Assembly (NCBI GenBank): GCA_963719495.1
Contig: CAVRCI010000002.1
Coordinates: 1 to 64,000, forward strand
Direction: 5' to 3'
DNA from: an uncultured Verrucomicrobiae bacterium
Lineage (GTDB): Bacteria > Verrucomicrobiota > Verrucomicrobiia > Chthoniobacterales > JAATET01
Length of the DNA stretch: 64,000 bases
The notes under the pieces are model-generated. The model was given only the letters and a program-made list of their open reading frames with translations, ran no database searches and was not told where the DNA came from. The position numbers were made by a program, and so were the translations under genes. Positions 29,447-55,635 of this stretch are shown here, in pieces (positions within the stretch are counted from its first letter, which is position 1; each line of letters begins with the position of its first letter).

Positions 29447-29450
29447 ATAT

Positions 29451-35979: not shown

Positions 35980-36108
35980 TCCGAACGTCAAGCTCAGCCA
36001 CCCTGAGCGGGGCAACGAACGTCTAGGAAAGGTGTTTGCGGGAAGGGGATCGGTCGGCCAAGGCTTGCCTCAGGCCGGCTAGGGGTTGGCTGCAGCGCCT
36101 TGTTCGTC

Positions 36109-36444: not shown

Positions 36445-36565
36445 GGCGAACGTCAAGCTCAGCCACCCTGAGCGGGCAATCAAACCAACCCTGAGGTGAG
36501 TTGCCAATAGCGGGACCGAGCAACCCCAGCCAGCGAAGCGGCTAGGGGTTGGCTGCAGCGCCTTG

Positions 36566-37101: not shown

Positions 37102-37279
37102 ACAGGAGTTTCGACCGGAGCGGGGCTTGTGGTCAACTTGTATTTCATGGGGCTAACGTCAAGCTCAGCCACCCTGAGCGGAGCAACGAACGTCCAGGCA
37201 AGGTGTTTGCTGGAGGGGGATCGGTCGGCCAAGGCTTGCCTCAGGCCGGCTAGGGGTTGGCTGCAGCGCCTTGTTCGTC

Positions 37280-37615
37280 GGAAACGGTGACTGCACAATG
37301 GAGGACCAGAGCGTCCGACAGGCTGAGGATGATCAAATCCAGCAAACGGCTTCGTTAGAGCATTCAGTAGAAGATGCTTCTGAGGTCCAGATTGACTCCG
37401 CATTATAAATATATTGCTCGTGATAGGAGCAGGCCGGAACGGAATTTGGATGGATCTACTCATGCCGCGTGAGCGCCCCAAGCGTGCATGGCAGGCGAAT
37501 AATTCTTTGCGTCGAATCGGGAGTGATCAATGGAAAACCAGAATCGTGCTCAATCGTATGCCGAAGTGAATCGAGCAAATCTGAAATTTTCCTTGATCTA
37601 AACCCCAATATATCA
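37280..37615 (-). repeat. Gene-less cassette family A
   Basis: One of 8 copies. Confidence 0.9.
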
Positions 37616-37745
37616 GGCGAACGTCAAGTTCAGCCACCCTGAGCGGGGCAACGAACGTCTAGGCAAGATGTTTGCTGGAAGGGGGATCGGTCGGCCAAGG
37701 CTTGCCGGTGATCGGCTAGGGGTTGGCTGCAGCGCCCTGGTCGTC

Positions 37746-38013
37746 GTGACGGGTCGCAGCGGAAGTGGCAATCAATAGCGTCCGGCAGGAACACGATACG
37801 GAAGTCGGGAAGAGCGCGATTTGCTGTAGGAGGTCCGAGTCACTGAGGGCATGCACATATCTCCTCGTGATGGCGAAAGCGTGGCCGAAAATGACAGACA
37901 AACGAGATTACCAGGAAAGCAGAGGGATGCGGAACGATTAGGAGATGATGAGAACGATACTCGGACGAATAAAATAGTAAGGTCCTAAACCGGGCGTTCA
38001 AATCAATATATTA
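37746..38013 (-). repeat. Cassette family C (268 bp), GGTCGCC/GACGACC core
   Basis: Homologous to 53064-53331 and split copy 46624-46665 + 55394-55635. Confidence 0.88.
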
Positions 38014-38141
38014 GGCGACCGTCAAGCTCAGCTACCCTGAGCGGACGACCAAGCCAACCCTAAGGTGAGCTGCCGATAGCGGGTTCGAGCAACCCCAGCC
38101 AGCGAAGCGGCTAGGGGTTGGCTGCAGCGCCTTGTTCGGTC

Positions 38142-38438
38142 TCACTTCACCCGCTTTCTCCAGTAACCAGGTTCACGACTGAGGTGCATGACAGCCCAGA
38201 TTACAACTTGAGACGGTTCAACCGTATAGTAGATTCCATAGGGAAATCGGCGTATGAGGTATCGCCTAACATCGTCTTCCGCAATTGGCCAAGTCATCGG
38301 TCGAAGGCGAATGTCAGCAATACCCTTTTCGATCTGCTCGACGAAGGCCAAACCGAGACTGTCGGTGACTCCAGAATAATACCGGATGGCGTTCGTATAC
38401 TCTCGCTTCGCCGCAGGGTGGAAACTGAACCCTGTCAC
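38142..38438 (-). CDS. parE: ParE/RelE family toxin
   Basis: FHPAAKREY..LGLAF..RRFPYGIYY..AVMHLSREPGYW. Confidence 0.9.
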   Translation of the reverse strand: MTGFSFHPAAKREYTNAIRYYSGVTDSLGLAFVEQIEKGIADIRLRPMTWPIAEDDVRRYLIRRFPYGIYYTVEPSQVVIWAVMHLSREPGYWRKRVK

Positions 38439-38671
38439 CGGGCGATGGTCACCTTGCGGGCGTCTTGTAGCACTTCTTCGCCAGGTAGAAGTTGGACGGT
38501 GCCACTGTCGACCTCCGCTCGACGGGACTTGATCTCGTCAAGGTGTCGGCGCTCCAGTGATGGATCAATATCCGTTGCGATGCTCTGAACGATTCTGTCA
38601 ACCAAGTCGGACCTCATCGAAGGAGAAAGCTCAAGCGACTTCGTCAGGATTTCATCAGCGGTGATTGTCAT
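38435..38671 (-). CDS. Addiction-module antitoxin
   Basis: LELSPSMRSDLV..EIKSRRAEVDSG..PGEEV. Confidence 0.85.
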   Translation of the reverse strand: MTITADEILTKSLELSPSMRSDLVDRIVQSIATDIDPSLERRHLDEIKSRRAEVDSGTVQLLPGEEVLQDARKVTIAR

Positions 38672-38839
38672 GCTGCTAGAGTAATTCTTGCGCTTGGTGT
38701 TGGCAATCGAATCATTGGACCGAACGTCAAGCTCAGCCACCCTGAGCGGGCAACCGAGCCAACCCCAAGGTGAGCTGCCAATGGCGGGACCGAGCAACCC
38801 CAGCCAGCGAAGCGGCTAGGGGTTGGCTGCAGCGCCTTG

Positions 38840-39157
38840 TTAGGGCTGTATTTTTATGTAGCCTCCGGGTTCAGAGTCATGAACAGCAGAGACAATCCGA
38901 TCAATATATCTTGGAATGTCCTTTTTCTGAATGAGGGGGATCTCAACAATCGAGATCTTGCGTCCCAATAGGTTCTGCTGATAGCGCAATTTGGAGTCAG
39001 CCGTGACGAAAACGTCATATTGAGAATCGATCAGTTGGATCAATTGCCCATTTTGAACTCCCGCCCAGCCCTTGAAGTAGACGGTGACAACTGTGAACTC
39101 TTTGAGAAAATGGCGAAGAACTACAGGAAGGTTCTCGTCAAGAATTACTGTCTTCAC
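38840..39157 (-). CDS. DUF5615 PIN-like toxin
   Basis: ILDENLP, GWAGVQNG, FVTAD..YQQNL. Confidence 0.85.
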   Translation of the reverse strand: MKTVILDENLPVVLRHFLKEFTVVTVYFKGWAGVQNGQLIQLIDSQYDVFVTADSKLRYQQNLLGRKISIVEIPLIQKKDIPRYIDRIVSAVHDSEPGGYIKIQP

Positions 39158-39350
39158 GAGTCATTTCTAAAAATTGAATAGCTTGCTCCCTTTCCACAGA
39201 TGGGAAGTCTTCTAGAAACTCGTCAATTGAGTTTCCCGAGTTGATATAGTCCAGCAGACTCTGAGCAAACACTCTTGTGTTTCGAAACACTAATGCTCCG
39301 CTTACAATGCGAGGGTCAGAATGAACTGGACTGTGTTCGATTGCTGTCAT
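39138..39350 (-). CDS. DUF433 antitoxin
   Basis: DPRIVSGALVFRNTRV..DEFLEDFPSV. Confidence 0.88.
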   Translation of the reverse strand: MTAIEHSPVHSDPRIVSGALVFRNTRVFAQSLLDYINSGNSIDEFLEDFPSVEREQAIQFLEMTREDSNS

Positions 39351-39521
39351 TCGAGAAGGTTATCGGCGATGCGTTGTTTTGCAACTGTATTGAGCCCTAA
39401 CGTCAAGCTCAGCCACCCTGAGCGGGCAATCAAGCCAACCCTGAGGTGAACTGCCGATAGTGGGTCCGAGCAACCCCAGCCAGCGAAGCGGCTAGGGGTT
39501 GGCTGCAGCGCCTTGTTCGGA

Positions 39522-39790
39522 TCCGCCCGCCCGTGGTCCGGTCCGATGGTCAATCTAAAGCCTTGCTCATTGCCATGCCGACTGATGATCAAACCATATC
39601 AGCAAGTCAAACTGATCCGGTTAGGTTCGAAAATAGGCACTGAATATGCTGTGCGAAAATAGCTTGATTTGGGCTTCCAGATAGGGAAATCAACCTCATT
39701 GTGGACAACATCCAAATACGCCAATTTTATACAAAGCAAATTACGAACGATGTTGTTTGCAATTTGGGCGTTGAGAAACTGGGGCATAGG
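39522..39790 (-). repeat. Gene-less cassette family B
   Basis: 269-bp homologue. Confidence 0.85.
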
Positions 39791-39912
39791 TCCGAACCGT
39801 CAAGCTCAGCCACCCTGAGCGGGCAATCAAGCCAACCCCGAGGTGAGCTGCCGGTAGCGGGTCCGAGCAACCCCAGCCAGCGAAGCGGCTAGGGGTTGGC
39901 TGCAGCGCCTTG

Positions 39913-40101
39913 TTAGGCTTTCACGGATCGATCAACAATGGGATGTCCCAAAAGAGCCTGACGCTGACGAGCATCACGGACCATTGCATCTATGTCGAAT
40001 GAGAACTGTTTCAAGAGCTTGAGTTTTGCCTGGCGGACCTCAGCCATTACGGGATCAAGTGGCTTCTTGTGAATCGTCTTATGCGTCAGTGTCTTCTTCA
40101 T
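39913..40101 (-). CDS. Small protein coupled to PIN gene (putative antitoxin)
   Basis: DPVMAEVRQAK..FSFDIDAMV; overlaps PIN gene end. Confidence 0.65.
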   Translation of the reverse strand: MKKTLTHKTIHKKPLDPVMAEVRQAKLKLLKQFSFDIDAMVRDARQRQALLGHPIVDRSVKA

Positions 40102-40570
40102 CGATGTAGAACTGTTGAGGTGTGCATGTAACTGGAAGATGCACCTGAAAATCAGAAAAGCAACGCTGTAATCTTTCGGATATGAATGGATTCGCAATAT
40201 GCTTGCAGTTCCAAGTCAGCAAGAAATTTATCTGATGGATGCCCGCGACGGCTAAGTGAACCGCGTCTCGCCCCGCAATGTCGGGAAGAATACCTTTCAC
40301 GATCAAAGCTTTCGCTAGCTCTGTTACGTCATCGGTAAGATCGAGAAGAGATATGCCATTAAGCAAATTTATGCGCTCTGCAGCTTTGATGGGATCACCC
40401 TGCGAAGCTTCGGCGATCACCAGCTGAGATGTGTAGAGGTCAAACTGATCTCTCTGATTATCCCACCATTGGCGGGTCAACTCCTGACGTGCAAGTAGAA
40501 GCACATTTTGAGAAGGCTTCGATGTGTAATAGCTTGGAATCGTAGTCTCGATGAAAAGTGTAATGCCCAT
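40079..40570 (-). CDS. PIN-domain (VapC-like) protein
   Basis: FIETTIPSY, TRQWW, DAVHLAVA, LLTWNCKHIAN. Confidence 0.85.
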   Translation of the reverse strand: MGITLFIETTIPSYYTSKPSQNVLLLARQELTRQWWDNQRDQFDLYTSQLVIAEASQGDPIKAAERINLLNGISLLDLTDDVTELAKALIVKGILPDIAGRDAVHLAVAGIHQINFLLTWNCKHIANPFISERLQRCFSDFQVHLPVTCTPQQFYIDEEDTDA

Positions 40571-40743
40571 GTCGACAAACTTGATCCACATGTCGCCCGA
40601 GTTCAAGCTCTCTAGCCGAACGTCAAGCTCAGCCACCCTGAGCGGGGCAACGAACGTCTAGGAAAGGTGTTTGCGGGAAGGGGATCGGTCGGCCAAGGCT
40701 TGCCTCAGGCCGGCTGGGGGTTGGCTGCAGCGCCTTGTTCGTC

Positions 40744-41081
40744 GGAAGAGGTGACTGCACAATGGAGGACCCGATCGTCCGACAGGCCGACGATGGTCAA
40801 ACCCAGCAAGCGGCTTCGTTAGAGCATTCAGTAGAAGAGGCTTCTGTGGTCCAGATTGACTACGCAGTATAAATATATATTGCTCGCGACAAGAGCAGGC
40901 CGGAACGGATTCTGGATGGATCTACTCATGCCGCGTGAGCGCCCCAAGCGTGCATGGCAGGCGAATAATCGTTGGCGTCGAATCGGGAGTGATCAATGGA
41001 AAACCAGAATCGTGCTCAATCGTATGCTGAAGGGAATCGAGCAACTCTGAACTTTCCCTTGATCTCAACTCCAATAGATCA
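40744..41081 (-). repeat. Gene-less cassette family A (338 bp)
   Basis: One of 8 copies; 2-nt insertion in AT tract. Confidence 0.9.
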
Positions 41082-41210
41082 GGCGAACGTCAAGCTCAGC
41101 CACCCTGAGCGGGGCAACGAACGTCTAGGCAAGGTGTTTGCGGGAAGGGGATCGTTCGGCCAAGGCTTGCCGCTGGTCGGCTAGGGGTTGGCTGCAGCGC
41201 CTTGTTCGTC

Positions 41211-41546
41211 GGAAACGGTGACTGCACAATGGAGGAGCCGAGCGTCCGACAGGCTGACGATGGTCAATTCCAGCAAGCGGCTTCGTCAGAGCATTCAGTA
41301 GAAAATGCCTCTGTGGTCCAGATCGACTCCGCATTATAAATATACTGCTCGTGACAAGAGCAGGGCGGAACGGATCGTGGATGGATCTACTCTTGCCGCG
41401 TGAGCGCCCCAAGCGTGCATGGCAGGCGAATAACCGTTGGCGTCGAATCGGGAGTGATCAATGGAAAACCAGAATCGTGCTCAATCGTATGCGGAAGGGA
41501 ATCGAGCAACTCTGAACTTTCCCTTGATCTCAACCCCAATAGATCA
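41211..41546 (-). repeat. Gene-less cassette family A
   Basis: One of 8 copies. Confidence 0.9.
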
Positions 41547-41736
41547 GGCGAACGTCAAGCTCAGCCACCCTGAGCGGGCAACCGAGCCAACCCCCAGGTG
41601 AGCTGCCAATGGCGGGACCGAGCAACCCCAGCCAGCGAAGCGGCTAGGGGTTGGCTGCAGCGCCTTGTTCGGGCCTTCAGTGCACAAGTTTCTGTAGGAG
41701 ATCTTATCATGTTCCCAGCATTGGCTAAGAATGAAT

Positions 41737-42036
41737 CTAAAAAGAAAGAGCTAATAGTATCCGAACACTATAATTTCTGATTGATGGATGTGCCGCACTT
41801 CTTACGGTTTTAATGCGCGGACGAGGAATACGATAAACAGAATCCAGAACGGAAATGACAGCAACAGAAGAAATGGCCAGATGTATGGCCACGACATCGC
41901 AAACAAAGTAGTGGATAGCGCTAGTATTCCGAAAGTGACCGCGCCGATCGATTTCATCGGATACTTCGGCATAGGAACCGATTTGAATTCTTGGTGCCAG
42001 CAGCAAAAGACGGACCACCAAATACGGACTCAACAA
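41737..42036 (-). CDS. Cassette hypothetical protein (boundaries uncertain)
   Basis: Longest cassette-strand ORF in 41674-42112. Confidence 0.3.
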   Translation of the reverse strand: MLSPYLVVRLLLLAPRIQIGSYAEVSDEIDRRGHFRNTSAIHYFVCDVVAIHLAISSVAVISVLDSVYRIPRPRIKTVRSAAHPSIRNYSVRILLALSF

Positions 42037-42241
42037 GTTTCAGCAAGGCAGTAGTCATGGCTTAGAAACTGGCGGGTCACAATGAAAGCGCTCATGAAGT
42101 CAGGATTCAGTGCCCGACCGTCAAGCTCAGCCACCCTGAGCGGGGCAACGAACGTCTAGGAAAGGTGTTTGCGGGAAGGGGATCGGTCGGCCAAGGCTTG
42201 CCTCAGGCCGGCTAGGGGTTGGCTGCAGCGCCTTGTTCGTC

Positions 42242-42577
42242 GGAAGAGGTGACTGCACGATGGAGGACCCGATCGTCCGACAGGCCGACGATGGTCAAAC
42301 CCAGCAAGCGGCTTCGTTAGAGCATTCAGTAGAAGATGCTTCTGTGGTCCAGATTGACTCCGCAGTATAAATATATTGTTCGTGACACGAGAAGTGCGGA
42401 ACGGATTCTAGATGGATCTACTCATGCCGCGTGAGCGCCCCAAGCGTGCATGGCAGGCGAATAATTCTTGGGGTCGAATCGGGAGTGATCAATGGAAAAC
42501 CAGAATCGTGCTCAATCGTATGCCGAAGGGAATCGAGCAAATCTGAACTTTTCCTTGATCTAAACTCCAATAAATCA
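42242..42577 (-). repeat. Gene-less cassette family A
   Basis: One of 8 copies. Confidence 0.9.
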
Positions 42578-43445
42578 GTCTAACGTCAAGCTCAGCCACC
42601 CTGAACGGGAGTTCGGATTTGACTGGTGATCATCTGCCCGTGGCGGGTGGCGCAACCCGGCCGCGAAGCGGCTAAGGGTTGGCTGCAGCGCCTTGTTCGG
42701 CCAGAAACGCCCAAGCAACGAAGGACTCCGCTATCTCGATGCCAACCCGTCTGTATTGATTGCATAGTTTCTCTATATCCAATTGCAATTGACGCGGAAT
42801 GGGGAAGTGGCTGATGGAGGAAAATGGTCTAGGAATGGAATCGACAGTCGGTAGTAGGAGAGGGGAATGCCGGTCTTGAAGAAGCGGCTCACATCAAAAG
42901 TGATTGGCAGTAACATCCATTGTTGGACATTCGATCAGGTCTTTCATCAACGAATCGACTTGCGAGATTTGAAACCGTAATTATGCGGAAGAATGTTCAC
43001 CCCGGGCTGATCGCTCCATGTTGGTATGAAATCACCGTGCTATTGCAATAGTGTTGATCAGGCAAAAATATTTTTTTTCGCTCCGCGAAAAGAGATGAGG
43101 AGAATGCTGGATGCTGGTTGAAAGTAATAACTGAATTCCCGCACGAACTTCCGAATACTCGAACACCCTGATCTACAGCATATTTTTTTAGATCGCCGTG
43201 CCGAGATGGTGTTGAAAGACAAGTGGCTCAGAATAGTTCATCCGCCGGAGGCTGCATGCCGGACGTCAAGCTCAGCCACCCTGAACGGGAGTCCGAATTT
43301 GTCTGGTGATCTTCTGGAAGTTGAGGGTCCGCGCAACCCCAAGAGCGAAGCGGCTAGGGGTTGGCTGCAGCGCTTTGTTAGCCTGTATTTTTACCTTAGA
43401 CAATTTAAGAGATTCTGAAAAAAGCGAGGGAATACTGTGTTGTGA

Positions 43446-45195
43446 GGGTGCAGGACAAAAATCTCTGAAAAAGCATTTGAGCGAGGTATTTTTACTGCCA
43501 AAGTATATGCGTTTACATATACGTTTGATTGATGAACCCAAATACCGCACCTCGTGCCATCCTTGATCAAATCGCGGCCATCGACCGCATGGAGCGAGGA
43601 AAGCTCTCGGTGATCCGTCAAGGCCAGAGCGGATCTTACTTCAATCTCCAGCGTAGGGAGGGTGGGCGAAACGTGACCGAATACGTCCCGGCCGATCAGG
43701 TGGCCCAAGCCCAGGAGAACATTGATGCCCATCATCGCTTCCAGTCTCTTGTCGGCGAGTATGCGGACTTGATCACCGCGCAGAGCAGGCAGGATCGCAA
43801 GGCCGGGGCTAAAAAAAAACGCCCGACCCAAACATCTGCCTCGCCCAGGAAGCGGAAATCCAAGACCTGATCGCCGCGTTCCGCAGCAAAGAGCCAGCCG
43901 GAACTGCCGTCGCCGAGTTGGAAGTCCTCGTGCGCACAGCCATCTTCAAACCAGCCAACGAACTGGTGGCCATGCTCCTGCAGCAAGCCGCCGAGCGCAT
44001 TGACGCGGCCTACCTCCCCAAGCCCGGCGAACAAGCCAAGGGGCGCGAGGTTCTCATGGTCCAGGGCATGTTCGGCTCCTTCGCGCTGCTGCGCCAATAC
44101 TACTACCATCCCGGGAAAAAATGCGGCCACTTCCCGGCCGATTCGGCCCTCGGTCTGGAAGGGGCCTACACCCCCGCCCTGGCCCGGCTCATCTGCTTGG
44201 AGGGAGCGGATGAAAGCAGCTTCCAGCAGGCTTGCTTCCACCTCGCGGAAACTGGCGGCATCTCCGTCTCCGAGCGCCAGATCCAGCGTGTGGTTGGCCG
44301 CACGGGCGAGTGCGCCGTGGCGTGGCAAAAACGAGAATCGGCCCCCGGCCCCTGCGAGGCCAGGATCCTCTACGTCAGCGCGGACGCCACCGGAGTGCCC
44401 ATGCGCCGGGAAGAGCTCGCTGGCCGCAAAGGCAAAGCCCCCGACGCAAAAGCCAAAACCCGCATGGCCACGCTCGGTTGCGTCTTCACCCAGACCAAAG
44501 AAGATGACCAAGGTCGCCCCCTGCGCGACCACGACTCCACCACCTACCTCTCCGCCTTCCAGAGCCCCTCGGACTTTGGAATCAGCCTGCGTCGCGAGGC
44601 CATTCGGCGCGGCTTGTTCTCGGCCCCGGAAACCGTCCTGCTCATCGACGGAGCCCCCGGCTTGGAAAAGCTCGGGCACGATTACTTTCCGGATGCCGTC
44701 CAAATCGTGGACTTCTACCACGCCATGGAACACCTCCAGACCCTGATCGAAACCCTCTGGGGCAAAGCGGAGCAGGCCCGCAACAAGCGCCGCAGACATC
44801 ACTGGAAAAAACTCCTCGCTCACGACGGGGTCGAGCGCATCATCAAGCAGGCGCGCCAGGAAGCCCTCCTTCGCGGCAATGTGGCACAGGTGGAAACCAC
44901 TTTGGGCTACTTCGTGAACAACATCCCGCGCATGCAATACGGAACCTTCCGGGCCAGAAAATACTTCATCGGCTCCGGAGTCGTCGAAGCCGGCTGCCGC
45001 TCACTCATCGGAAAGCGATGCAAGCAATCGGGCATGTTCTGGGGCGAGCCTGGCGCGGACAAAGTCCTCGCCTTCCGCTGCATCCATGCCAGCCGCAGAA
45101 CGGACTCGTTCTGGAAATACCACCTCAACTCACGCGCCGCTGAGAACGACACGCTCCCCCTCGCCGCATGATTTGAAGAATTTTGTCCTGCACCC
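43446..45195 (+). mobile_element. ISKra4-family IS (1750 bp)
   Basis: IR GGGTGCAGGACAAAA / TTTTGTCCTGCACCC; 9-bp TSD GTGTTGTGA. Confidence 0.88.
43529..45171 (+). CDS. ISKra4 transposase (orfA 43529..43870 + orfB; A9 slippery run 43811-43819)
   Basis: ADATGVPMR, IDGA, DFYHA.EHL, IGSGVVEAGC..RCKQSGMFW. Confidence 0.85.
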
Positions 45196-45707
45196 GTGTT
45201 GTGATAGCGGTCATGGCAGGGCTTGCAAACAGCAATCAACTCAAATAAGATTTCTTCACCTACGTTTTCGTATGTTTTGTGATGTGCCTGAGTAGCGCGA
45301 CGGCTTCTGCATCCCTCGCATATTCCTTGGGAGCGTTGAATCACAAGTTCGCGTTTCGCAAGCCACTCGTCACTTTGGAGATACTCCTCATACTGAGCGT
45401 TCCAGGCTTCACGTAGCTTTCCGCGTTCATCCTCCTGAATCTGCTCAAATCGTTCTCGGAACAGAGCCCAAACTCTATCAGCGATTTCTAAATCAAAATC
45501 GGGAATTACTAAGGGATCGGCAATCTTGCTCTTCGGAATTCGATTCCCAGTCTTTGATCCGCATTTTAGACATTGATTCCAATACCATTTTTGACCGCTT
45601 TCCGTAACCTTGACGCGAATTTCCGTTAATTGATGTTCGCACAGACTCGGGCAGTCGGCCCGTCGCCTGAGTGACTCATAGTCAAGATCGAGTCTCGTGA
45701 ACTTCAT
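44907..45707 (-). CDS. HNH/zinc-finger endonuclease-like cassette protein, C-terminus replaced by ISKra4
   Basis: YEEYLQSDEW..CEGC..HHKTY..CKPCHDRYH; native tail (HNT)VFPRFFQNLLNCLR lies at 43391-43445. Confidence 0.75.
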   Translation of the reverse strand: MKFTRLDLDYESLRRRADCPSLCEHQLTEIRVKVTESGQKWYWNQCLKCGSKTGNRIPKSKIADPLVIPDFDLEIADRVWALFRERFEQIQEDERGKLREAWNAQYEEYLQSDEWLAKRELVIQRSQGICEGCRSRRATQAHHKTYENVGEEILFELIAVCKPCHDRYHNTGAGQNSSNHAARGSVSFSAARELRWYFQNESVLRLAWMQRKARTLSAPGSPQNMPDCLHRFPMSERQPASTTPEPMKYFLARKVPYCMRGMLFTK

Positions 45708-45832
45708 TTTAGGCTAACGTCAAGCTCAGCCACCCTGAGCGGGTAATCGAGCTAACCCTGAGGTGAACTGCCGGTAGCGGGTTCGAACAACCCCAGCCAG
45801 CGAAGCGGCTAGGGGTTGGCTGCAGCGCCTTG

Positions 45833-46168
45833 TTAGCCCTCAGGAGTATTTTGAATGGCTGTCTTCATCAGAGGAGTGTCTTCAATTGCGGTTCCCCATA
45901 CCATGTCGAGATCCACTCCAAAGTATTGATGTATCAATTTGTCTCGCATGCCCGCTATGTTCTTCCATGGAATGTTCGGGCGGTGGTCCCGAAAGTCCAT
46001 CGAGAGCATTTTGGTGGCTTCACCGATAATTTCAAGCTGCCGAATAATTGCATGTTGCATCATAGGTGTAGAATAAAATACCGAACGCTCAATGCCTGCC
46101 GTATAGAGTTCGATCCGTGAAATAGCGTCTAGGATATGCTGCGCATAGATTTCGTCATCACGCTCCAT
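45833..46168 (-). CDS. HEPN ribonuclease toxin (DUF86/HepT-like)
   Basis: LEIIGEA, IPWKNIAGMRDKLIHQY (RX4HXY). Confidence 0.92.
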   Translation of the reverse strand: MERDDEIYAQHILDAISRIELYTAGIERSVFYSTPMMQHAIIRQLEIIGEATKMLSMDFRDHRPNIPWKNIAGMRDKLIHQYFGVDLDMVWGTAIEDTPLMKTAIQNTPEG

Positions 46169-46445
46169 AAAGCAGAGTCATATTAGATAAAACACTATTA
46201 CGAAGGTGCTTATTCAATGAATTCCTTGTGACTAGGTCGACTGGGCGTTCGGCCAAATCGGATAGGTCTCTCTCAAGTTCGATGAACGCAAGAAGGCTCT
46301 TGGGTGTGGCGAAATCGACTAGGAGATCAATGTCGCTCTCCTCTGTGTCATCTCCTCGCGCTGTCGAACCAAAAAGAGCGACCATTGTCGCGCCTTCCGA
46401 GCGACATCGGTCGACTAGTGGAGCCAGACGTTCTTTTGCGATCAT
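46158..46445 (-). CDS. Minimal nucleotidyltransferase antitoxin (MntA-like)
   Basis: LFGSTARGD..SDIDLLV..VDLVT. Confidence 0.92.
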   Translation of the reverse strand: MIAKERLAPLVDRCRSEGATMVALFGSTARGDDTEESDIDLLVDFATPKSLLAFIELERDLSDLAERPVDLVTRNSLNKHLRNSVLSNMTLLYGA

Positions 46446-46623
46446 CCCGCAAGATTACCGAATGTGGTCTTGCGGGCGAGCATTGTTTTCATGGGGCTAA
46501 CGTCAAGCTCAGCCACCCCGAACGGGGATCCGAACTCTGAAGAAGGATGTGAACTGCCAGCCGGAAGTCAGTGCAACAGCGGCCGGTGATCGGCTAGGGG
46601 TTGGCTGCAGCGCCCTGGTCGTC

Positions 46624-46665
46624 GTGACGGGTCGCGGCGGAAGTGGCAATTAATAGCGTCCGGCA
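46624..46665 (-). repeat. Cassette family C, 3' part (split by IS and inversion)
   Basis: Continues at 55635-55394 via shared 16-mer. Confidence 0.85.
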
Positions 46666-47433
46666 TGTCGGCGACTGTTCAAAAGCGGAATTCTCGCCTG
46701 TTCAAAAGCGAACAGCGATTTTAGAGGCTGAAGTGGCCTAGAATGGGGGGCCAGACGGTTTTGGGAGGGTGTTCGACGACCCAGAAACGGCTTCCGGGAT
46801 GGTGGACGATGGTGACGCTCTTGCGCTGGGTGTTGGAGATCTCGTAGTTGGAGCCATCGAAGTCGATGGTGTGGTCATTGTTCACCCGGCGGGAGCAGCG
46901 GATTGAGAGGTGTAAGTCTAGGAGCGCGGAAGGCGGGATGGGGCGCATGCGCCCGCTGTCGCCAAGCGACTGCGCTTCCCACAGATGGAGCGGGACCTTG
47001 CCGGTGGAGCGATTGACGGTACGGTTCTGCCTGGCAATCTCCATCTGAAGAATTTCGTCGGCCTGGGGCCAAGTTTTGGCGCTGGCATGGGCGAGTAGTG
47101 TGACGAGCCGTCTCTGGAAAGTCCCGAAACGGCGCTCGATCTTACCCTTAGCTTGTGGGGTCGGTGCCACTAAGTGAGCGACGCCGAGTCCGCGGAGGGC
47201 GCGTTGGAATTCACTCTTAGGATCGCAGTGATCGCCGCTGGAACTTGGCCCGAAGAGGCTGAGGCCATCAGTGTAAACGATCTGCGGCAGGCCCCAGGTC
47301 TCGAAGGATTCGCGGAAATGTCCGAAATGGTTCCAAGTGGTATCGGATTCCACGAAGCGACCTGCTAGATTCAGGCCCGAATGGTCGTCGACGGTGAGCA
47401 GTAAAGTCTGTTTAGCGGCGGCGGGCCACCATT

Positions 47434-48742
47434 GGCTCTTCTGGGATTACAGTGGGAAAAGATCGAGCCTACCGAGGAAGAAGAGGATTCTGGTTCGGTA
47501 GTTGAGGAAGGAACGGAACCCACGGGCGGCGGACTTGAGGGATTGGATTCGTGAATTGAGAGCTTCGGTAGCCGCGTTGGTGATGCGATGGCGCAGGAAG
47601 GTGATGATGTTCTCAAAGTGGTTTTTGAGGGTTTTGGCCACCTTCTTGATGGGTTCAAGCTGGGAGCGGCGAGCCCAGCCATACCAAGCCGCGAAGAACT
47701 TGCGGGCATTGGCCTCGTAGCGGAAGTTCCAGAAGCGGCGGAGGTTTTCCTTGATGGCCCAGGCGCGAGCGCTCTTGAGATCGGAGTCACGCAGTTGAGA
47801 AAAGCGAGCAACATCCTCCTCTCTGAGATGATCGGGGTTGTAGCCGAAGAGGCGCTGGGTGCCTTTGAGGCGTTCGTCTCCCATGGCTTGCAGGCGTTTG
47901 TTTTCGGCGCGCACGACCTGGCTCACCGCTTTGTTGAGATGGGCGCTGATGTGGTAGCGGTCGTGGACCAGATCAGCCTGCGGGGCGTAGTCTGCGACGC
48001 TGGCACCAAAATGCCCGCTCATGTCGGCGGCCACGGCTTTCAAGTCCGCGGTGACATCCTCGGGCAGGCATTGCCAAAGGACTGCCGCGCTCTGCTTGTC
48101 GTTGCCGTCAGTGACTTCCAGCACCCGGCTGCCTTCCAGATCAGTCATGAGCGAAATGTAGCTCTGCCCACCGCCGAAGCTCTTTTCATCGAGTCCGGCG
48201 TAGCGCAATCCACTCAGATCGCGACGCTCAAGCCCCCGCTCGACGGCCCGTCGCATGATCCCGTGAACTTGATCCCAGCTCAGTCCCAGCAGTCGTGCCG
48301 CCGCACTCACCGTCGAGCACGCTCGGATCACTTCGATGGCAAAACGCTCGTAGAGCAGCGTAAAGCGGCTGCCCTTCCCCGCCCACGGCACCGGCACGCT
48401 TTCCACCCGCCCATCCGGTAGCCGCAGCCGCGGCACTCGCGCCGCCAGCAACGTCTCGAACCCGCACGTATCCATGTGCTTCCAGAAGCGTTCGACATGG
48501 TCGTGGCACGGAAGTCGATGCTCCCCATCCTCACTGGCCCACAACGTCCCCGGCTCATATCCGAGCCGGACCACCACCCGCTTCTCGCTCACGGCCAAGT
48601 CCACCTCTTCAACCGCCCATGGACTCTTCAATCCCAGGATCTGCGTGTAAAACTCTGTATCCTTCATCGCCCTCCTTCCTACCCGCATCCACCACCTCCG
48701 TTCAAACCCTCTTCACTTTCCCACTGTAAACCCAGAAGAGCC
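47434..48742 (-). mobile_element. ISL3-family IS copy 2
   Basis: Same IRs as copy 1; TSD CCACCATT. Confidence 0.95.
47447..48688 (-). CDS. ISL3 transposase
   Basis: 413 aa, identical to copy 1 except K to R near the C-terminus. Confidence 0.93.
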   Translation of the reverse strand: MRVGRRAMKDTEFYTQILGLKSPWAVEEVDLAVSEKRVVVRLGYEPGTLWASEDGEHRLPCHDHVERFWKHMDTCGFETLLAARVPRLRLPDGRVESVPVPWAGKGSRFTLLYERFAIEVIRACSTVSAAARLLGLSWDQVHGIMRRAVERGLERRDLSGLRYAGLDEKSFGGGQSYISLMTDLEGSRVLEVTDGNDKQSAAVLWQCLPEDVTADLKAVAADMSGHFGASVADYAPQADLVHDRYHISAHLNKAVSQVVRAENKRLQAMGDERLKGTQRLFGYNPDHLREEDVARFSQLRDSDLKSARAWAIKENLRRFWNFRYEANARKFFAAWYGWARRSQLEPIKKVAKTLKNHFENIITFLRHRITNAATEALNSRIQSLKSAARGFRSFLNYRTRILFFLGRLDLFPL

Positions 48743-49469
48743 CCACCATTGGTGGATCGAACTGTCGTGCTGCCAAAGTTCGCCGATGCGAGCGCGACGG
48801 AAGCGCCGATAAACGCGAGGCTTGCGGGTCGGCGAGGGCACCAGATGGGCGTAGCGCGCTTTGACGTGGGTCTCGACGACCGAGCGCGCCCGAACGAATC
48901 CGCAGAGTCGCTCAAGTTCGTCGGCGACTAACTGGTAATTGGGTGGGTTCTGAAGCGGCAGAAACTCTTGGAGAAAGCGTTCAACTTCGGGCGGCCAGTC
49001 GGCGCGACGAGCGCCCCCGCTGGCAGCCGGGGCGTAGGAATTACGATTTGCGAGGTAGGCCGTGCGGAGTTCATAGAGCCTGGTTTTGCCGATGCCTAAC
49101 TGGCTTGCGGCATTGCTGGCATCGAGAAGTCCTGCATTGAAATCTGCAAGTGTGCGACGGACAAAATCTGGCGGGAGACGGTGGGTAATCTGCTTCTTTT
49201 CAATCCGGGATAATCGACCAGGCGAGCGCGCAAGCCAGCGCGTTCCACAAACGCTTCACCCCAACGGCTGGTATCCTTGGGGCACTGGGGCCGGGGAGCA
49301 GGCGCGCACGCGGGAAGCGCCTCTCCGTCAGCCTCCGCTACGCTCCGGCCTCCTCCGAGGCGCTTCCCGCGTCTCCCAATACAACGCCCCAAAACCCCCA
49401 ATCCACTTTTGAACAGTCTCTCATTCCGCTTTTGAACAGTCTCCGTTCACTTTTGAACAGGCCCCGACA

Positions 49470-49727
49470 CTTTATGGTGTAGATGATGCTGGAAAAAGCC
49501 ATTTCATTCCATTCGATCAGCCGCAGTTCGAGTCGCACCAACCACTAAGAGTTACACAAGCACAGATCGTCGCCATTCATACGTCGTTTCCCAAATCATA
49601 TTTTCGGAGCTTCAGTAGCTTCTACGTCGCAGTTCCTGTTATCTTGGATGGGAACTTATGGTATATTCCATCGCAAGTAGAGTCGATATCGATGAAAGCC
49701 GAACAAGGCGCTGCAGCCAACCCCTAG
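49470..49727 (+). pseudogene. 3' half of secreted-protein cassette gene whose 5' half is 57123..57390 (-)
   Basis: Open frame LYGVDDAGKSHF..MKAEQGAAANP* continues ..FQGLQLYGVD. Confidence 0.85.
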
Positions 49728-49864
49728 CCGCTTCGCTGGCTGGGGTTGCTCGAACCCTCTACTGGCAGTTCACCTCAGGGTTGGCTTGATTGCCCGCTCA
49801 GGGTGGCTGAGCTTGACGTTAGCCATATTCTACACAATGATAACACACGTATATTACCAACACC

Positions 49865-50332
49865 ATGATCACTAAACTCCTTCTGATCTCAACGATTGCT
49901 CTCGCACTGCTCCAGCCGACACAGGCGCAGGATACCGAGAAAGCATCTTTTAATTTCGTGTATAGAACCGATCGAACTGGCGGAAACTTCCTTACGTTGA
50001 GCGCCCGGCAATCTATTACTGTATCAGGAAAGTTACGCTTTCGCAAATCCCGCGCGGATTCAGGAATCTACAAGTTCGAAGGACGCGTGCTATCGTCCCG
50101 TCTAGATGCAATGGGCAATACTCGATTCCGAGTCATACTTTCGGACGGCAATGGCCTAAAACTTAAGGGAACGGCATGGCAGGAGCTCCGCTTGGTTGGG
50201 TCTGAAGATTTCGTAATTGGAGGAGAGTATTTCAACCTATTTAAAGGCCGAACAAACGAACCGAGACTTTTTAATCAGAGGGCGAAGCGGCTTGATCTTG
50301 AACACAAGGCAGGAACTGTGTTTTTCGATTAG
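49865..50332 (+). CDS. Cassette secreted hypothetical protein
   Basis: Signal peptide ending TQA; ORF fills cassette. Confidence 0.75.
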   Translation: MITKLLLISTIALALLQPTQAQDTEKASFNFVYRTDRTGGNFLTLSARQSITVSGKLRFRKSRADSGIYKFEGRVLSSRLDAMGNTRFRVILSDGNGLKLKGTAWQELRLVGSEDFVIGGEYFNLFKGRTNEPRLFNQRAKRLDLEHKAGTVFFD

Positions 50333-50468
50333 AATCAATGCGGCTAACAAGGCGCTGCAGCCAACCCCTAGCCGCTTCGCTGGCTGGGGTTGCTCGGTCC
50401 CGCTACCGGCAGCTCACCTCAGGGTTGGCTCGGCCACCCGCTCAGGGTGGCTGAGCTTGACGGTCGCC

Positions 50469-50848
50469 TTATACAAAAAATAACGATTTAGTTCGGTTTA
50501 GGAACGCTCGCTTTCGATTCGATCGGGCGACTGAGCCGAGGGAATTCGACTGGATGCCCCTTTCCCCTTCCATCCGCCGACTCCCCTCGTCACAGACGCC
50601 CTCTTCCACCTCTCCGATCTCACTTCGCCGTTCCGGGTCTCGCCGCTCCACCCGCAGAGCCGGGTCGAGCTTGCGCCTCCGCGACTTCGCTGATTGATCT
50701 GTTTCGATTACATTTTCACCATCACGAGGAAATATTGCCACGACCAGTCTGGCTCGAGCCTCGGTCCATGTGGTTGAATTGTTCCTGACTTCCACGGTTT
50801 CGCCCCTGTCGGATGCTACGGTCGGCCATCTTGTCCACGAGCCGTCCC
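50469..50848 (+). repeat. Diverged family-C-like gene-less cassette (380 bp)
   Basis: GGTCGCC/GACGACC core and TTTTCACCATCACGAGGAAATAT block. Confidence 0.7.
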
Positions 50849-51018
50849 GACGACCAGAGCGCTGCAGCCAACCCCTAGCCGTCACCCGGCGCTCTTGTTC
50901 TGACTTCCGTCCAGTCCATCACATCAAGCTCAGAATTTGGTCCCCCGTTCGGGGTGGCTGAGCTTGGCGTTAGGCGATACAGAATTGCGCGAAGCTGAAT
51001 ATCCGATACACTCCTTTC

Positions 51019-51237
51019 ATGATCGCAATAGATGAAATACAGCAAATGCCTCTGCACGAAAAACTTGTGGTTATGGAAGCAATATGGTCAAACATATCCC
51101 AAGTTGAGGCTTCAATCGACGTTCCCCAATGGCACAAGGACTTGCTTGACGAACGGGAAGCGTTGATTTCGGGAGGCAAGGCACAGTTCATTGATTGGGA
51201 CGACGCCAAAAAACAGATTGAGGCCGCTACTCGATGA
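51019..51237 (+). CDS. Addiction-module antitoxin
   Basis: EKLVVMEAIW..PQWHKDLLDER..FIDWDDAK. Confidence 0.85.
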   Translation: MIAIDEIQQMPLHEKLVVMEAIWSNISQVEASIDVPQWHKDLLDEREALISGGKAQFIDWDDAKKQIEAATR

Positions 51238-51533
51238 AGCTGCAGATTCTCGACCTCGCGCGCAACGATCTCATTGATGGCTATCACTATTACGAAGACA
51301 AAGAAGATGGACTTGGGTCTTACTTCCTGACAAACCTCTATTCAGACATCGAGACACTCAAGGTATTCGGTGGGATTCATTCAAAGCCTCATAAGGATTT
51401 TCATCGAGCACTCTCTAAGCGCTTCCCTTTTGCAATCTATTATACGGTGGCCGACAGCACAGTTCAGATCAGGGCCGTGATTGATTGTAGACGAAAGCCA
51501 ACTTGGATTCGAAAGCACTTGAGGAACGCCTAA
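51234..51533 (+). CDS. parE: ParE/RelE family toxin
   Basis: ARNDL..YE..GLGSYF..RFPFAIYY..DCRRKP.W. Confidence 0.88.
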   Translation: MKLQILDLARNDLIDGYHYYEDKEDGLGSYFLTNLYSDIETLKVFGGIHSKPHKDFHRALSKRFPFAIYYTVADSTVQIRAVIDCRRKPTWIRKHLRNA

Positions 51534-51654
51534 CAAGGCGCTGCAGCCAACCCCTAGCCGCTTCGCTGGCTGGGGTTGCTCGAACCCGCAAGTGGCAGCT
51601 CACCTCAGGGTTGGCTCGATTGCTAGCTCAGGGTGGCTGAGCTTGACGTTCGCC

Positions 51655-51990
51655 TGATTTATTGGAGTTAAGATCAAGGGAAAGTTCAGAGTTGCTCGAT
51701 TCCCTTTGGCATACGATTGAGCACGATTCTGGTTTTTCATTGATCACTCCCGATTCGGCCCCAAGAATTATTCGCCTGCCATGCACGCTTGGGGCGCTCA
51801 CGCGGCCTGAGTAGATCCATCCAGAATCCGTTCCGCCCTTCTCGTGTCACGAGCAATATATTTATAATGCGAAGTCAATCTGGACCACAGAAGCCTCTTC
51901 TACTGAATGCTCTAACGAAGCCGCTTGCTGGATTTGACCATCGTCGGCCTGTCGGACGCTCTGGTCCTCCATTGTGCAGTCACCGTTTCC
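51655..51990 (+). repeat. Gene-less cassette family A
   Basis: One of 8 copies. Confidence 0.9.
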
Positions 51991-52126
51991 GACGAACAAG
52001 GCGCTGCAGCCAACCCCTAGCCGACCAGAGGCAAGCCTTGGCCGACCGATCCCCTTCCGGCAAACACCTTGCCTAGACGTTCGTTGCCCCGCTCAGGGTG
52101 GCTGAGCTTGACGTTAGCTGATTACA

Positions 52127-52942
52127 ATGCCTCAGGTCGTAAGCCAAAATGGAGTTCGGTTAAATTCCGACTACAAGCTCGGAGAGATTCAGGGCATCTG
52201 CGGCCTGATCCTCGAATCGTGGGTTCCCTCGGACCGCAACGCGGATTACAATCGTGCACTTGACACCCTGATCGAAAGACTTGCAATTTATGGACTCGAG
52301 GAGATTTCAGTGAATGTGATATCCCGGGATTTAATGAGCAAGTTTCCTGTTTTTTCGGATCGATCGCTCAAGGTTCGGGATTCGACTGCCATTTCGATCT
52401 CGACGGTCGACATTAAGGATCAAAGACTTCGGATCGGACGATTGCAGGCTGAAATGAAGGTCGATCCGGATGTTCGAGGCGGAAACAGGACTAAACGCAT
52501 ATTACTTTACAACCACGCGATTGACGCCACATCTTGGGAACGCATTGCAGAAGGCTTTTCCCCTGATTCCAAACAAGATCGGATTGATCGTCGCGTAGAA
52601 TATGGTGATGCACTTCCCACTGGTAATGTATCTCCCACTCGCACCCGTCACAGCACAGTGACTGTCGACCGAGATCCTTTTGTTCGCTCTTGGATTCTCC
52701 ATAATGCGAGCGGTGTTTGCGAACTCTGTGGTTTTACAGCGCCGTTCTTTAATGATGCTGGCCTCCCATTCCTCGAGGTTCACCACGTTTTTCCGCTCGC
52801 CGCCGGCGGACCTGACACCGTCGACAACGCTGTCGCGTTGTGCCCGAACTGCCATAGAGAATTACATCACGGAGTTGATCGGACTGCCAAGACCGCAGAC
52901 CTTATTCGATTGATTGGTCGGTTGGATTCAATACACAGCTAA
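52127..52942 (+). CDS. HNH endonuclease (McrA-like C-terminus)
   Basis: RDPFVR..CELC..PFLEVHHV..GGPDTVDNAVALCPNCHRELH. Confidence 0.9.
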   Translation: MPQVVSQNGVRLNSDYKLGEIQGICGLILESWVPSDRNADYNRALDTLIERLAIYGLEEISVNVISRDLMSKFPVFSDRSLKVRDSTAISISTVDIKDQRLRIGRLQAEMKVDPDVRGGNRTKRILLYNHAIDATSWERIAEGFSPDSKQDRIDRRVEYGDALPTGNVSPTRTRHSTVTVDRDPFVRSWILHNASGVCELCGFTAPFFNDAGLPFLEVHHVFPLAAGGPDTVDNAVALCPNCHRELHHGVDRTAKTADLIRLIGRLDSIHS

Positions 52943-53063
52943 CAAGGCGCTGCAGCCAACCCCTAGCCGCTTCGCTGGCTGGGGTTGCTCGGACCCGCCT
53001 CCGGCAGCTCACCTAGGGGTTGGCTCAGTCGCCCGCTCAGGGTGGCTGAGCTTGACGGTCGCC

Positions 53064-53331
53064 TAATATATCTGTTTTGAACGCCCGGTTTACGACCTTC
53101 AGATCTTATTCGTCCGAGTATCGTTCTCATCATCTCCTCATCGTTCCGCGTCCCTCTGCTTTGCTGGTAATCTCGTTTGTCTGTCTTTTTTGCCACGCTT
53201 TCGCCATCACGAGGAGATATGTGCATGCCATCAGTGACTCGGACCTCTTGCAGCAAATCACCCCCTTCCCAACTTCCTTATCTTGTTCCTGCCGGACGCT
53301 ATCGATTGCCACTTCCGCTGCGACCCGTCCC
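53064..53331 (+). repeat. Cassette family C (268 bp)
   Basis: GGTCGCC/GACGACC core. Confidence 0.88.
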
Positions 53332-53467
53332 GACGACCAGGGCGCTGCAGCCAACCCCTAGCCGATCACCGGCCGCTGTTGCACTGACTTCCGGGTGGCA
53401 GTTTACATCCTTCTTCAGAGTTCGGATCCCCGTTCGGGGTGGCTGAGCTTGGCGTTCGGCAAATGAT

Positions 53468-53986
53468 ATGAAACGACCATTCGTTACAAATGCCACTTAT
53501 CTGGAAAGACCTTTTTTCGTGCGCCAAGTCGAGAGTCATCTCTTTTTTGGTCCGGTATCTCGTTTTTTCGATTTGGCGTATCTCGTTTTCGCCGTTGCAG
53601 CCGGAAGTCTAGTCTATTTCCTTTTTCTCACTGAGAAATCAATCTTTCAGTATATTTCAAGTTTAGCGGACAAACTCGTGTTTCTAGCTGTCCCATTTGT
53701 CATGCTCGGTTTGACGCGTCGCCAACAAGCAGTTCTAGGTTGGATATCAGTAAAAGTTTCGTTTGCGATCGCCGCGTTAATCATGGCTACGGTCGGCAGT
53801 ATAACGAGCTTTTCCAAAAATCAAACTGACGCACTACCCAATCTGTTTCTTGGATTGATTTGGATCCCATGGATAGAGTTTATCCCTTCCGTCACATCGT
53901 CACAGTGGCTTGTTACTAGTAGTCGGTTTATCCTTTCACTCCCATGCGTCTATTTCGGGATTCAAAGCGGCTATTGGCATTGGTAA
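53468..53986 (+). CDS. Cassette multi-pass membrane protein
   Basis: About 5 hydrophobic segments; ORF fills cassette. Confidence 0.7.
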   Translation: MKRPFVTNATYLERPFFVRQVESHLFFGPVSRFFDLAYLVFAVAAGSLVYFLFLTEKSIFQYISSLADKLVFLAVPFVMLGLTRRQQAVLGWISVKVSFAIAALIMATVGSITSFSKNQTDALPNLFLGLIWIPWIEFIPSVTSSQWLVTSSRFILSLPCVYFGIQSGYWHW

Positions 53987-54165
53987 ATACATGCCGAACA
54001 GGGCGCTGCAGCCAACCCCTAGCCGCTTCGCTGGCTGGGGTTGCTCGAACCCGCTATCGGCAGTTCACCTCAGGGTTGGCCCGGTTGCCCGTTCAGGGTG
54101 GCTGAGCTTGACGTTCGGTCATAAAGAGTTCGATTCGCACGGTTTGTCTTGCTGTAATCCAGTAA

Positions 54166-54726
54166 ATGACCGCGAAACGCTTCTATGACTGGCAGACCGC
54201 CGGTGGCACTGACGATGTGATGCGTCTCACATCCTGCCTTGAGCGGGCAGATATTGCTTGGTGCGCAATCGGAGGTGTCGCCGTGAATCACTGGGCCGAC
54301 GAGCCAATGGTGACTCAGGATGTTGATTTTGTTGTAGCGACTGAATCAATCCAGTCGACGGTCTACGCGCTTGAGAGGGAAGGATTCAGGAGCAAGACTT
54401 TTGAGTGGTCGATCAATTTTACCGGATCATCTCGGGTGAGCATTCAGCTCAGCACGGAGGACTTCTATCGAGAGTTCCCCGCACGCGCGGTCCCAGCAGA
54501 TGTTCACGGAATCCTTCTCAGAGTAGCATCGTTGGCTGATACTCTCTCCGGCAAGATCAAGGCTTGGTCGGCGCCGGAACGCAGACAAAGCAAGCGAATC
54601 AAAGATCTCGGGGATATCTCAAGACTCGTTGAGGCACACCCTCACTTGTGGAAGATGCTTCCAACAAAGCTGCAGGCACAAATTGATAATCCTGAGACCG
54701 AACAAGGCGCTGCAGCCAACCCCTAG
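54166..54726 (+). CDS. Nucleotidyltransferase-family protein (AbiEii-like fold)
   Basis: AIGGVAVN..TQDVDFVV..K..R..K..KDLGDI. Confidence 0.75.
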   Translation: MTAKRFYDWQTAGGTDDVMRLTSCLERADIAWCAIGGVAVNHWADEPMVTQDVDFVVATESIQSTVYALEREGFRSKTFEWSINFTGSSRVSIQLSTEDFYREFPARAVPADVHGILLRVASLADTLSGKIKAWSAPERRQSKRIKDLGDISRLVEAHPHLWKMLPTKLQAQIDNPETEQGAAANP

Positions 54727-54831
54727 CCGCTTCGCTGGCTGGGATTGCTCGGTCCCGCTACCGGCAGCTCACCTCAAGGTTGGCTTGGTCGCCCGCTCAG
54801 GGTGGCTGAGCTTGACGTTCGGTCATATACT

Positions 54832-55296
54832 ATGAATACCAGCAAACGAGCATTCTTGTGCGCAGCACTTGCATCAATGGCGCTTTCAATTTCTGCAGAG
54901 GACAACGCCCACGATTATGTCAAGCCAAACTACGAAGTGGAATTGGCTAGGAGAGAGTATCAAACTAAACTGTATGCCGCATTTCGCAGCGATTCGATCA
55001 TATCAAAAGAACTTCCTGAAGATTTCCGGTTAAGTGGTTTAGCATACGGAGGCCTTGAAATCCAATTTTACAGGACCACATCTACGGAAGCACAACAGAA
55101 AATTATTGAGATCATACAAGCTACGATAAGCGACAGTCTTTTCCTCAATGCACGGATTGAATTCTATGAAGACCGCATCACAACCTCTAGTCCTGGACGC
55201 AATGGCAGACAATTCGAATCGCTATTGAGGACGATTTCAATCGGGGAACCATACGAACACAATTCGACCGAACAAGGCGCTGCAGCCAACCCCTAG
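54832..55296 (+). CDS. Cassette secreted hypothetical protein
   Basis: Signal peptide; stop inside attC. Confidence 0.7.
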   Translation: MNTSKRAFLCAALASMALSISAEDNAHDYVKPNYEVELARREYQTKLYAAFRSDSIISKELPEDFRLSGLAYGGLEIQFYRTTSTEAQQKIIEIIQATISDSLFLNARIEFYEDRITTSSPGRNGRQFESLLRTISIGEPYEHNSTEQGAAANP

Positions 55297-55393
55297 CCGC
55301 TTCGCTGGCTGGGGTTGATCGGTCCCGCTACTGGCAGCTCACCTCAAGGTTGGCTTGGTTGCCCGCTCAGGGTGGCTGAGCTTGACGGTCGCC

Positions 55394-55635
55394 TAATATA
55401 TAGATTTGAACGCCCGGTTTAGGAACATCACGGTTGGATTCTCCAAGTATTGTTCTCCTTATCTCTGCTCCGTTCGGCGCTACGCTGCTCTACTGGTGAC
55501 CTCGTTTGTCTGTCTTCTTCAGCCACGTTTTCACCATCACGAGGAGATATTTGAACGCCTCTAGTGATTCGGACCTCACTCAGCAAATCACCCTCTTCCC
55601 AACTTCCGTATCTTGTTCCTGCCGGACGCTATTAA
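55394..55635 (+). repeat. Cassette family C, 5' part
   Basis: Homologous to 53064-53305; ends at IS. Confidence 0.85.

Follow-up and report, generated by a model that had tools for sequence, protein, structure and literature searches.

Frumerie et al. 2010 (PMC2811028) described the GTT/AAC triplet at the crossover of attC recombination sites as absolutely conserved among known integrons, and in the available part of Nivina 2020 (PMC7439510) the AAC triplet is counted among the essential elements. According to the available sections of the former study, the integrase IntI1 requires a match between the recombination partners only at the first core base (G1), and its Table 4 gives, relative to wild type, values of 1.0 for a compensated attC-GGT recombined with attI1, 0.96 for attC with attI1-GGT and 0.71 where both partners carry GGT, as well as 1.9 and 0.15 for attC-GAT and attC-GCT with attI1. 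The element described here is a family of gene-less cassettes with the compensated core GGT/ACC, referred to as family C, which resides in a 64,000-nucleotide window (the whole stretch of DNA analyzed) at the distal end of a chromosomal integron of ~200 cassettes. G000 denotes the source genome, C2 the contig holding the window (G000:C2:1-64000) and G001–G005 five congeners. With a probability of roughly 0.6, GGT/ACC represents a tolerated, near-neutral variant of ordinary attC cassettes that an ordinary integron integrase mobilizes. In the literature searched, the coverage of which is thin for subscription journals, natural attC families with many copies and a core other than GTT were not found to be reported.

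In the original prediction, four C-type cassettes with both core halves changed were placed within the window, and all eight core coordinates are correct. The R' motif G|GTCGCC is located at 38020(-), 50462(+), 53057(+) and 55387(+), and the R'' motif GACGACC at 37739-37745(-), 46617-46623(-), 50849(+) and 53332(+). A C-short cassette of 398 bp occupies 37622..38019 on the minus strand. Its R' spans 38014..38020 with the crossover after G 38020, and the attC upstream of it (R'' at 38140) is an AAC/GGT hybrid. Its own attC (37616..37745, minus strand), whose interior resembles family B sites in a mosaic manner, joins the R'' at 37739-37745 to an R' GTT contributed by the next cassette and thus represents an ACC/GTT hybrid. 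Two further cassettes are encoded on the plus strand, namely a C-long cassette of 507 bp at 50463..50969 (R' 50462-50468, R'' 50849-50855) and a C-short cassette of 397 bp at 53058..53454 (R' 53057-53063, R'' 53332-53338), the latter being 100% identical to a copy at C2:117012 that has other neighbours. The remaining C-short copy is disrupted in two ways, through insertion of an ISNCY-like element (1487 bp, flanked by a 16-bp target duplication) and through inversion of the segment 49470-55635, leaving its 5' half at 55388..55635 (plus strand, R' 55387-55393) and its 3' half including the attC at 46501..46665 (minus strand, R'' 46617-46623).

After exclusion of 6 of 203 cassettes featuring an orphan arm, 197 intact cassettes were counted in G000, comprising 180 with GTT/AAC, nine with GGT/ACC and eight with a one-sided change; the split copy represents the tenth member of family C. 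What had been described as one family comprises a short form of 397-398 bp (C-short) and a long form of 506-509 bp (C-long). Overall identity between these two subfamilies is 56-65%, and their homology covers the final ~130 nt of the body (E 4e-8 and 8e-9, controls giving no match). Five C-long copies, four C-short copies and the split C-short copy were distinguished, and copies within the subfamilies are 83-100% identical. The association of both core changes is not due to chance, since nine of the ten cassettes ending with ACC start with GGT as compared to 11 GGT starts among all 197 (hypergeometric 5e-13, a value overstated by the common origin of the copies). It is also not a base-calling error, as two short-read metagenome runs from the same study, possibly including the source sample, each yielded one contig that spans a C-short copy with unchanged GGT and ACC. 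The supposedly altered spacer was read correctly (AGGGC in three window copies, AGAGC in one), but it lies in the unpaired central spacer and differs from copy to copy, with AAGGC and AGAAC at other genomic locations; AGGGC is also present in the canonical site at 53993. Uncompensated core departures within the window were found at 42119 (G|GTCGGG), 39798 (an extra G) and 43264 (GTC), the first belonging to a single-copy cassette with a G|GTCGGG / CCCGAAC core at 41553..42119 (minus strand). Family B (465 bp, 29 copies, GTTCGCC/GACGAAC) was considered as the canonical sister of family C; it has the same outer core letters, and no body homology was obtained by BLAST or nhmmer, so that this relationship was not shown.

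Apart from the GTT/AAC triplet, which they lack, the GGT/ACC cassettes feature the inverted repeat R''-spacer-L'' ... L'-spacer-R' of integron attC sites with two extrahelical bases, as read from the alignment. The assumption that both changed halves still pair holds for six of the seven positions, the odd one being a G-T wobble on the bottom strand, but pairing is confined to the excised circle and never occurs in the array. Since R' positions 2-7 belong to the next cassette, compensation in a GGT cassette is restricted to its circular form, and in the array its own attC reads ACC/GTT and the upstream attC AAC/GGT, each with a mismatch at position 2. For nine GGT circles, the R box is predicted to be paired, with median pairing probabilities of 0.96-0.97 at positions 1-5. 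Such pairing is treated as a condition of the recombinogenic fold in the available part of Loot 2017 (PMC5371416). Sites mismatched at position 2 account for 22/197 in-array sites in G000, 53/182 in G002, 27/59 in G003 and 50/373 in G004, corresponding to 11-46%.

The spread of the family to separate positions had been attributed to recombination, and the arrangement of the copies supports a movement one by one via site-specific recombination and not by segmental duplication. No two C copies share an upstream or downstream neighbour, and pairs sharing both neighbours were absent from all four sets of pairs compared (0/10, 0/6, 0/406 and 0/231). The twins at 53057 and 117012 are identical through the whole attC, and only two terminal nucleotides are common with the upstream attC. 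Natural markers narrow the crossover down to a stretch of 2 nt, bounded by position -2 on one side and core position 2 on the other, position 2 going with the downstream cassette and position -2 with the upstream site. The marker TTGGC at position -2 occurs in the own attC of 7/9 intact C copies and in 1/188 other G000 sites, and the upstream attC of intact C copies reads TTGAC in 9/9 cases. Both markers therefore place the crossover in the two bases around G1, where IntI cuts. The attC interiors are mosaic in variant and canonical families alike.

The array belongs to a sedentary chromosomal integron, as an integron integrase adjoins attI and the array, and ~200 cassettes with homogeneous attC are located on one 828-kb contig. 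The intI gene at C2:176417-177349, outside the window, matches TIGR02249 with 426.8 bits (cut-off 265), and at the attI junction the sequence G|TTCGCC precedes the first cassette of the G000 array. It had been proposed that this integrase likely recombines GGT sites or that the change tunes the excision rate. The latter idea is favoured by folding and by a published mismatch result, but not by twin counts or the divergence of copies. The former does not amount to a new property: no special enzyme is needed, because IntI1 tolerates compensated GGT (1.0-fold) and GAT (PMC2811028, available sections) and the contact residues are unchanged here. The G000 IntI positions matching Y18, T22, Y26, K160 and H271 of VchIntIA are conserved, as counted on the alignment, and a single D/E column separates the IntI proteins of variant-bearing from those of variant-free genomes, their cleavage-site contact residues being the same. 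Changed contact residues at the cleavage site, the mark of altered specificity, were thus not found. Moreover, the IntI gene (L001:787-2433, on C2 outside the window) encodes an N-terminal extension of ~230 residues without Pfam match. It precedes the SAM-like domain in four full-length main IntIs and is conserved in G002, G004 and G005. G004 encodes a second integron integrase on C5 (L111), which is more distant and shares 57-66% identity with the other ones.

The same attC type is arrayed in 5/5 congeners, with 63-408 matching arms each. Counts for the relatives exclude orphan-arm cassettes (6, 3, 1, 0, 9 and 15 for G000–G005) and cassettes crossing the edges of 20-kb pieces, and they cover the arrays of G001, G004 and G005 in part. 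The search in related arrays, suggested along with the original prediction, did not return GGT/ACC in any of the five congeners (pattern search; the same type of pattern works on G000), but it revealed another compensated variant, GAT/ATC, in three of them, namely 28/182 cassettes in G002, 14/59 in G003 and 26/373 in G004 (68 in total). No compensated variants were detected among the 131 cassettes of G001 and the 134 of G005. The GAT/ATC cassettes measure 437-442 bp, are gene-less and are related to each other as well as to canonical GTT families; subfamilies with a similarity of about 70% have all retained GAT. A common origin of the GGT and GAT families was rejected, no homology having been found between them; as the GAT family is related to canonical GTT families and unrelated to family C, there are two origins. 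Within 1076 cassettes representing 533 families from six genomes, GGT/ACC (9) and GAT/ATC (68) are the only compensated changes, and these 77 intact variant copies are spread over 4/6 genomes. Compensated changes at core positions 1 or 3 were not observed among these cassettes, and GCT/AGC never appeared as a pair. The natural spectrum corresponds to the two best-tolerated position-2 changes of the IntI1 assay, two origins being a small sample. Further searches returned no C-long body in 40 relatives and no match of the exact R''-to-L'' pattern in metagenome contigs. A scan of genome contigs yielded 73 loci, comprising the G004 array and others; seven of the others were inspected and contained no compensated cassette, three being attC-like with another spacer register.

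Available data on attG secondary sites (consensus GWT, 10.1101/2022.09.11.507474) are comparable insofar as IntI accepts GAT besides GTT at the crossover, which might offer a one-step origin for the GAT start. Unlike attC, they are double-stranded genomic targets, and GGT lies outside the GWT consensus. The GAT superfamily and its canonical sisters (92 cassettes in G001–G005; e.g., L075:13308-13415(-) and L223:11579-11687(+)) also contain an internal 19-bp imperfect inverted repeat with copies ~58 nt apart. Its invariant 7-bp ends resemble an R box carrying GAT/ATC; pairing is seen in 88% of cells, and three pairs are changed on both sides. This repeat is absent from G000 and has no Rfam match.

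Based on these results, the following course is proposed. A gene-less lineage would have undergone a single change of core position 2 on both arms, from GTT/AAC to GGT/ACC, and would have diverged into the two subfamilies afterwards. IntI presumably cuts the folded bottom strand between A and C, as known for IntI1; with such a cut only G1 has to match the partner, and position 2 travels with the downstream cassette, as the natural markers show. Judging from the IntI1 data, the excised circle with its fully paired R box would enter attI at a normal rate, whereas in the array the two sites ACC/GTT and AAC/GGT are each mismatched at position 2. Excision is probably slower, yet twins with new neighbours suggest that it is frequent enough for monomer circles and re-insertion. 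The variant would persist because reverting needs two steps, and the second, independent change GAT/ATC would have taken the same course in three congeners.

Near-neutrality is in line with several observations. Twins at ≥99% identity are found for 19/75 variant and 82/254 canonical gene-less copies (Fisher p=0.32), mean within-family identity is 0.88-0.92 for variants and 0.78-0.97 for canonical families, and in the G002 array a GAT cassette occupies the second position, following a canonical cassette. In two twin pairs, the sequence shared with the upstream attC is limited to 2-3 terminal nucleotides, which suggests excision by IntI rather than a pop-out, although gene conversion could mimic this pattern.

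Other results weigh against this interpretation. Predicted R-box pairing is ~0.9 in circles and ~0.6 in canonical sites of the array, and it falls to ~0 in the sites on either side of a variant. In the available sections of PMC2811028, GTT opposite ATC (a T-T mismatch) lowered IntI1-mediated attC x attI recombination from 2.2e-3 to 6e-6, i.e., ~370-fold, and every GAT cassette has precisely this arrangement at its upstream site, a result difficult to reconcile with neutrality. The mismatches of the GGT family (C-T and A-G) are absent from these sections, and the assay addresses recombination of attC with attI rather than excision, so that the hybrids of an array are outside its scope. No core-mismatch test was found in the available part of Larouche and Roy 2011 (PMC3053210). 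Furthermore, variant-variant tandems, the only context with a matched in-array site, are depleted (4 versus 9.2 by permutation, P=0.03; canonical same-family tandems 43 versus 38.5), in a test chosen after seeing the data and resting on 4-5 events. Identical twins could also arise from gene conversion, and the attC interiors are mosaic. Finally, both origins lie in gene-less multi-copy families; such families make up 360/1076 cassettes, so this may be chance. Cassette uptake from incoming single-stranded DNA has been described (PMC12614218, available part); it could supply circles without loss from the host array, yet it would still need excision between mismatched sites.

Some of these results are in line with a second, tentative explanation, for which the odds are clearly lower, namely that gene-less cassettes twice found a position-2 change that is favoured in itself. 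The circle would integrate at full rate and leave two crippled attC sites, and the cassette and its two neighbours would resist excision; a gene-less cassette would thereby persist longer and may contribute to the stability of the array, an effect that toxin-antitoxin cassettes achieve by a different route. Pairing predicted in the circle and not at the array sites, the ~370-fold loss measured with IntI1 and the tandem depletion all fit this scheme. The same applies to the two independent origins that both became multi-copy (10 copies in G000; 28, 14 and 26 in G002, G003 and G004), to the share of mismatched sites in variant-bearing genomes and to the retention of GAT across diverged subfamilies. 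However, variants have recent twins as often as canonical gene-less families do, and their copies show no greater divergence; copy numbers of 79, 38, 32 and 29 are attained by canonical gene-less families without any core change, two of the six genomes lack variants, and the tandem test is post hoc. If true, such easy-in/hard-out cassettes would act as locks, either selfish or stabilising for the array, and would parallel toxin-antitoxin cassettes at the level of sequence, with up to 46% of array sites affected.

It is improbable that the cassettes leave the array without IntI, by homologous recombination between two similar attC repeats that pops a cassette out as an automatically compensated circle, with IntI only inserting it. 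Mosaic attC interiors could be read in this way, as could two of the nine intact C copies with a family B-like interior and no -2 marker, the split copy, which lacks the marker too, and the attC sites less than 90% identical in 6/135 canonical and 1/19 GAT twin pairs. On the other hand, 7/9 C copies retain the -2 marker that a pop-out would replace, the attC is identical in 12/19 GAT twin pairs, similar to 82/135 canonical ones, and two twin pairs share no more than 2-3 nt with the upstream attC. Such a length of shared sequence is too short for RecA.

An integrase of this genus with changed or relaxed specificity, perhaps conferred by the N-terminal extension, that accepts GGT, GAT and a mismatched R box appears more doubtful still. 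The extension is conserved, position 4 pairs in only 43% of in-array sites, so the enzyme often meets weak R boxes, and integrases of sedentary chromosomal integrons can be more site-specific than IntI1 according to the available part of PMC12614218; against this stand the unchanged contact residues, the variant-free congeners with the same enzyme type and the capability of IntI1 to cope with compensated GGT and GAT. Segmental duplication or assembly error, conceivable where long-repeat arrays are hard to assemble and rearrangement driven by insertion sequences (IS) is present, is practically ruled out because no neighbours are shared and the copy at 53057 is identical to that at C2:117012 in a different context, and it is also opposed by the 83-100% identity within subfamilies, the same cores on short-read contigs and the parallel pattern in three other genomes.

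It had further been expected that covariance-model tools may miss the variant sites. A local covariance model built on 27 canonical window sites, an easier setting than the general model of IntegronFinder (PMC4889954, available part), recovered 8/8 affected sites, with 71-104 bits for the four own C sites and 129-139 bits for the four upstream hybrids. Primers or pattern searches demanding GTT/AAC would miss GGT and GAT sites, covariance models probably would not.

By inspection, no forward frame with a start is common to all copies of either C subfamily, and three frames tried had no Pfam match; a conserved protein was therefore rejected. Folding z-scores of the bodies near zero, no conserved inverted repeat and no Rfam match likewise speak against a structured RNA. 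Sigma-70-like sites numbered zero in 50300-53500, which includes two C copies, versus 1.9 in shuffles. For GAT cassettes, an ATG created by the G|ATG junction was rejected as a general start: a 30-residue frame exists in 25/28 G002 copies and other frames in G004.

Regarding the surroundings, the distal part of the cassette array covers 26910..60927 (minus strand) with 120-bp attC repeats and extends to about C2:175,500. The inverted block (49470..55635, plus strand) is bordered by an ISNCY-like element with a nested ISL3 at 46666..49469 and by a second, inverted ISNCY-like copy of 1487 bp at 55636..57122. This element features TGT...ACA ends, terminal repeats and the 16-bp target duplication, and it is present in ten copies in the genome, two with nested ISL3; 61356-64159 is another location on C2. 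Gene-less multi-copy families dominate the arrays (35982-61000 and beyond). Family B also occupies the first array position in G000, and one family reaches its 79 copies in G004. Toxin-antitoxin cassettes were identified at 38142-38797, 45833-46445, 54166-54726 and 40079-40636, two of which directly adjoin C copies; the types found in the window are ParE with antitoxin, HepT with nucleotidyltransferase, AbiEii and PIN. Moreover, a 33-bp tandem duplication of an attC right arm was observed at 59443-59513, and small clusters of the same attC lie off the main array at C7:38058-40950 and C4:228875-229432 of G000. Attachment sites resembling attC with a longer spacer on both arms occur in other Verrucomicrobia and in a Pirellulaceae genome (L156, L159, L165).

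The two variants are a natural exception to a triplet described as absolutely conserved (PMC2811028), and this exception is found twice within a single genus; tolerance in the laboratory was already known, which lowers the surprise, and nature uses both position-2 changes found harmless there. What remains is a paradox of mismatches, since each variant cassette makes two mismatched attC of a kind on which IntI1 was hardly active, and the cassettes have nevertheless remained mobile. The solution would be either that excision depends less on R-box pairing than has been supposed, or that the variants are locks that help large arrays to persist.

Compared to known systems, the variant cores resemble the engineered attCaadA7-GGT and -GAT cleavage-site mutants assayed with IntI1, in the available sections of PMC2811028, in bearing the same compensated and tolerated position-2 changes; unlike these, they are natural and fixed in multi-copy families of chromosomal arrays. 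Family C shares with the gene-less cassettes of Vibrionaceae (Blanco et al., 10.1101/2023.11.21.568050) the short length and the lack of a conserved reading frame, whereas the latter, in the available part of that work, act as promoters and are built with a GTT core. With the Vibrio-type superintegron, the G000 array has in common intI, attI, ~200 cassettes with 120-bp attC, toxin-antitoxin cassettes and IS insertions; it is set apart in this genus by the long N-terminal extension of IntI and by position-2 mismatches in up to 46% of in-array attC sites, the latter value being reached in a congener.

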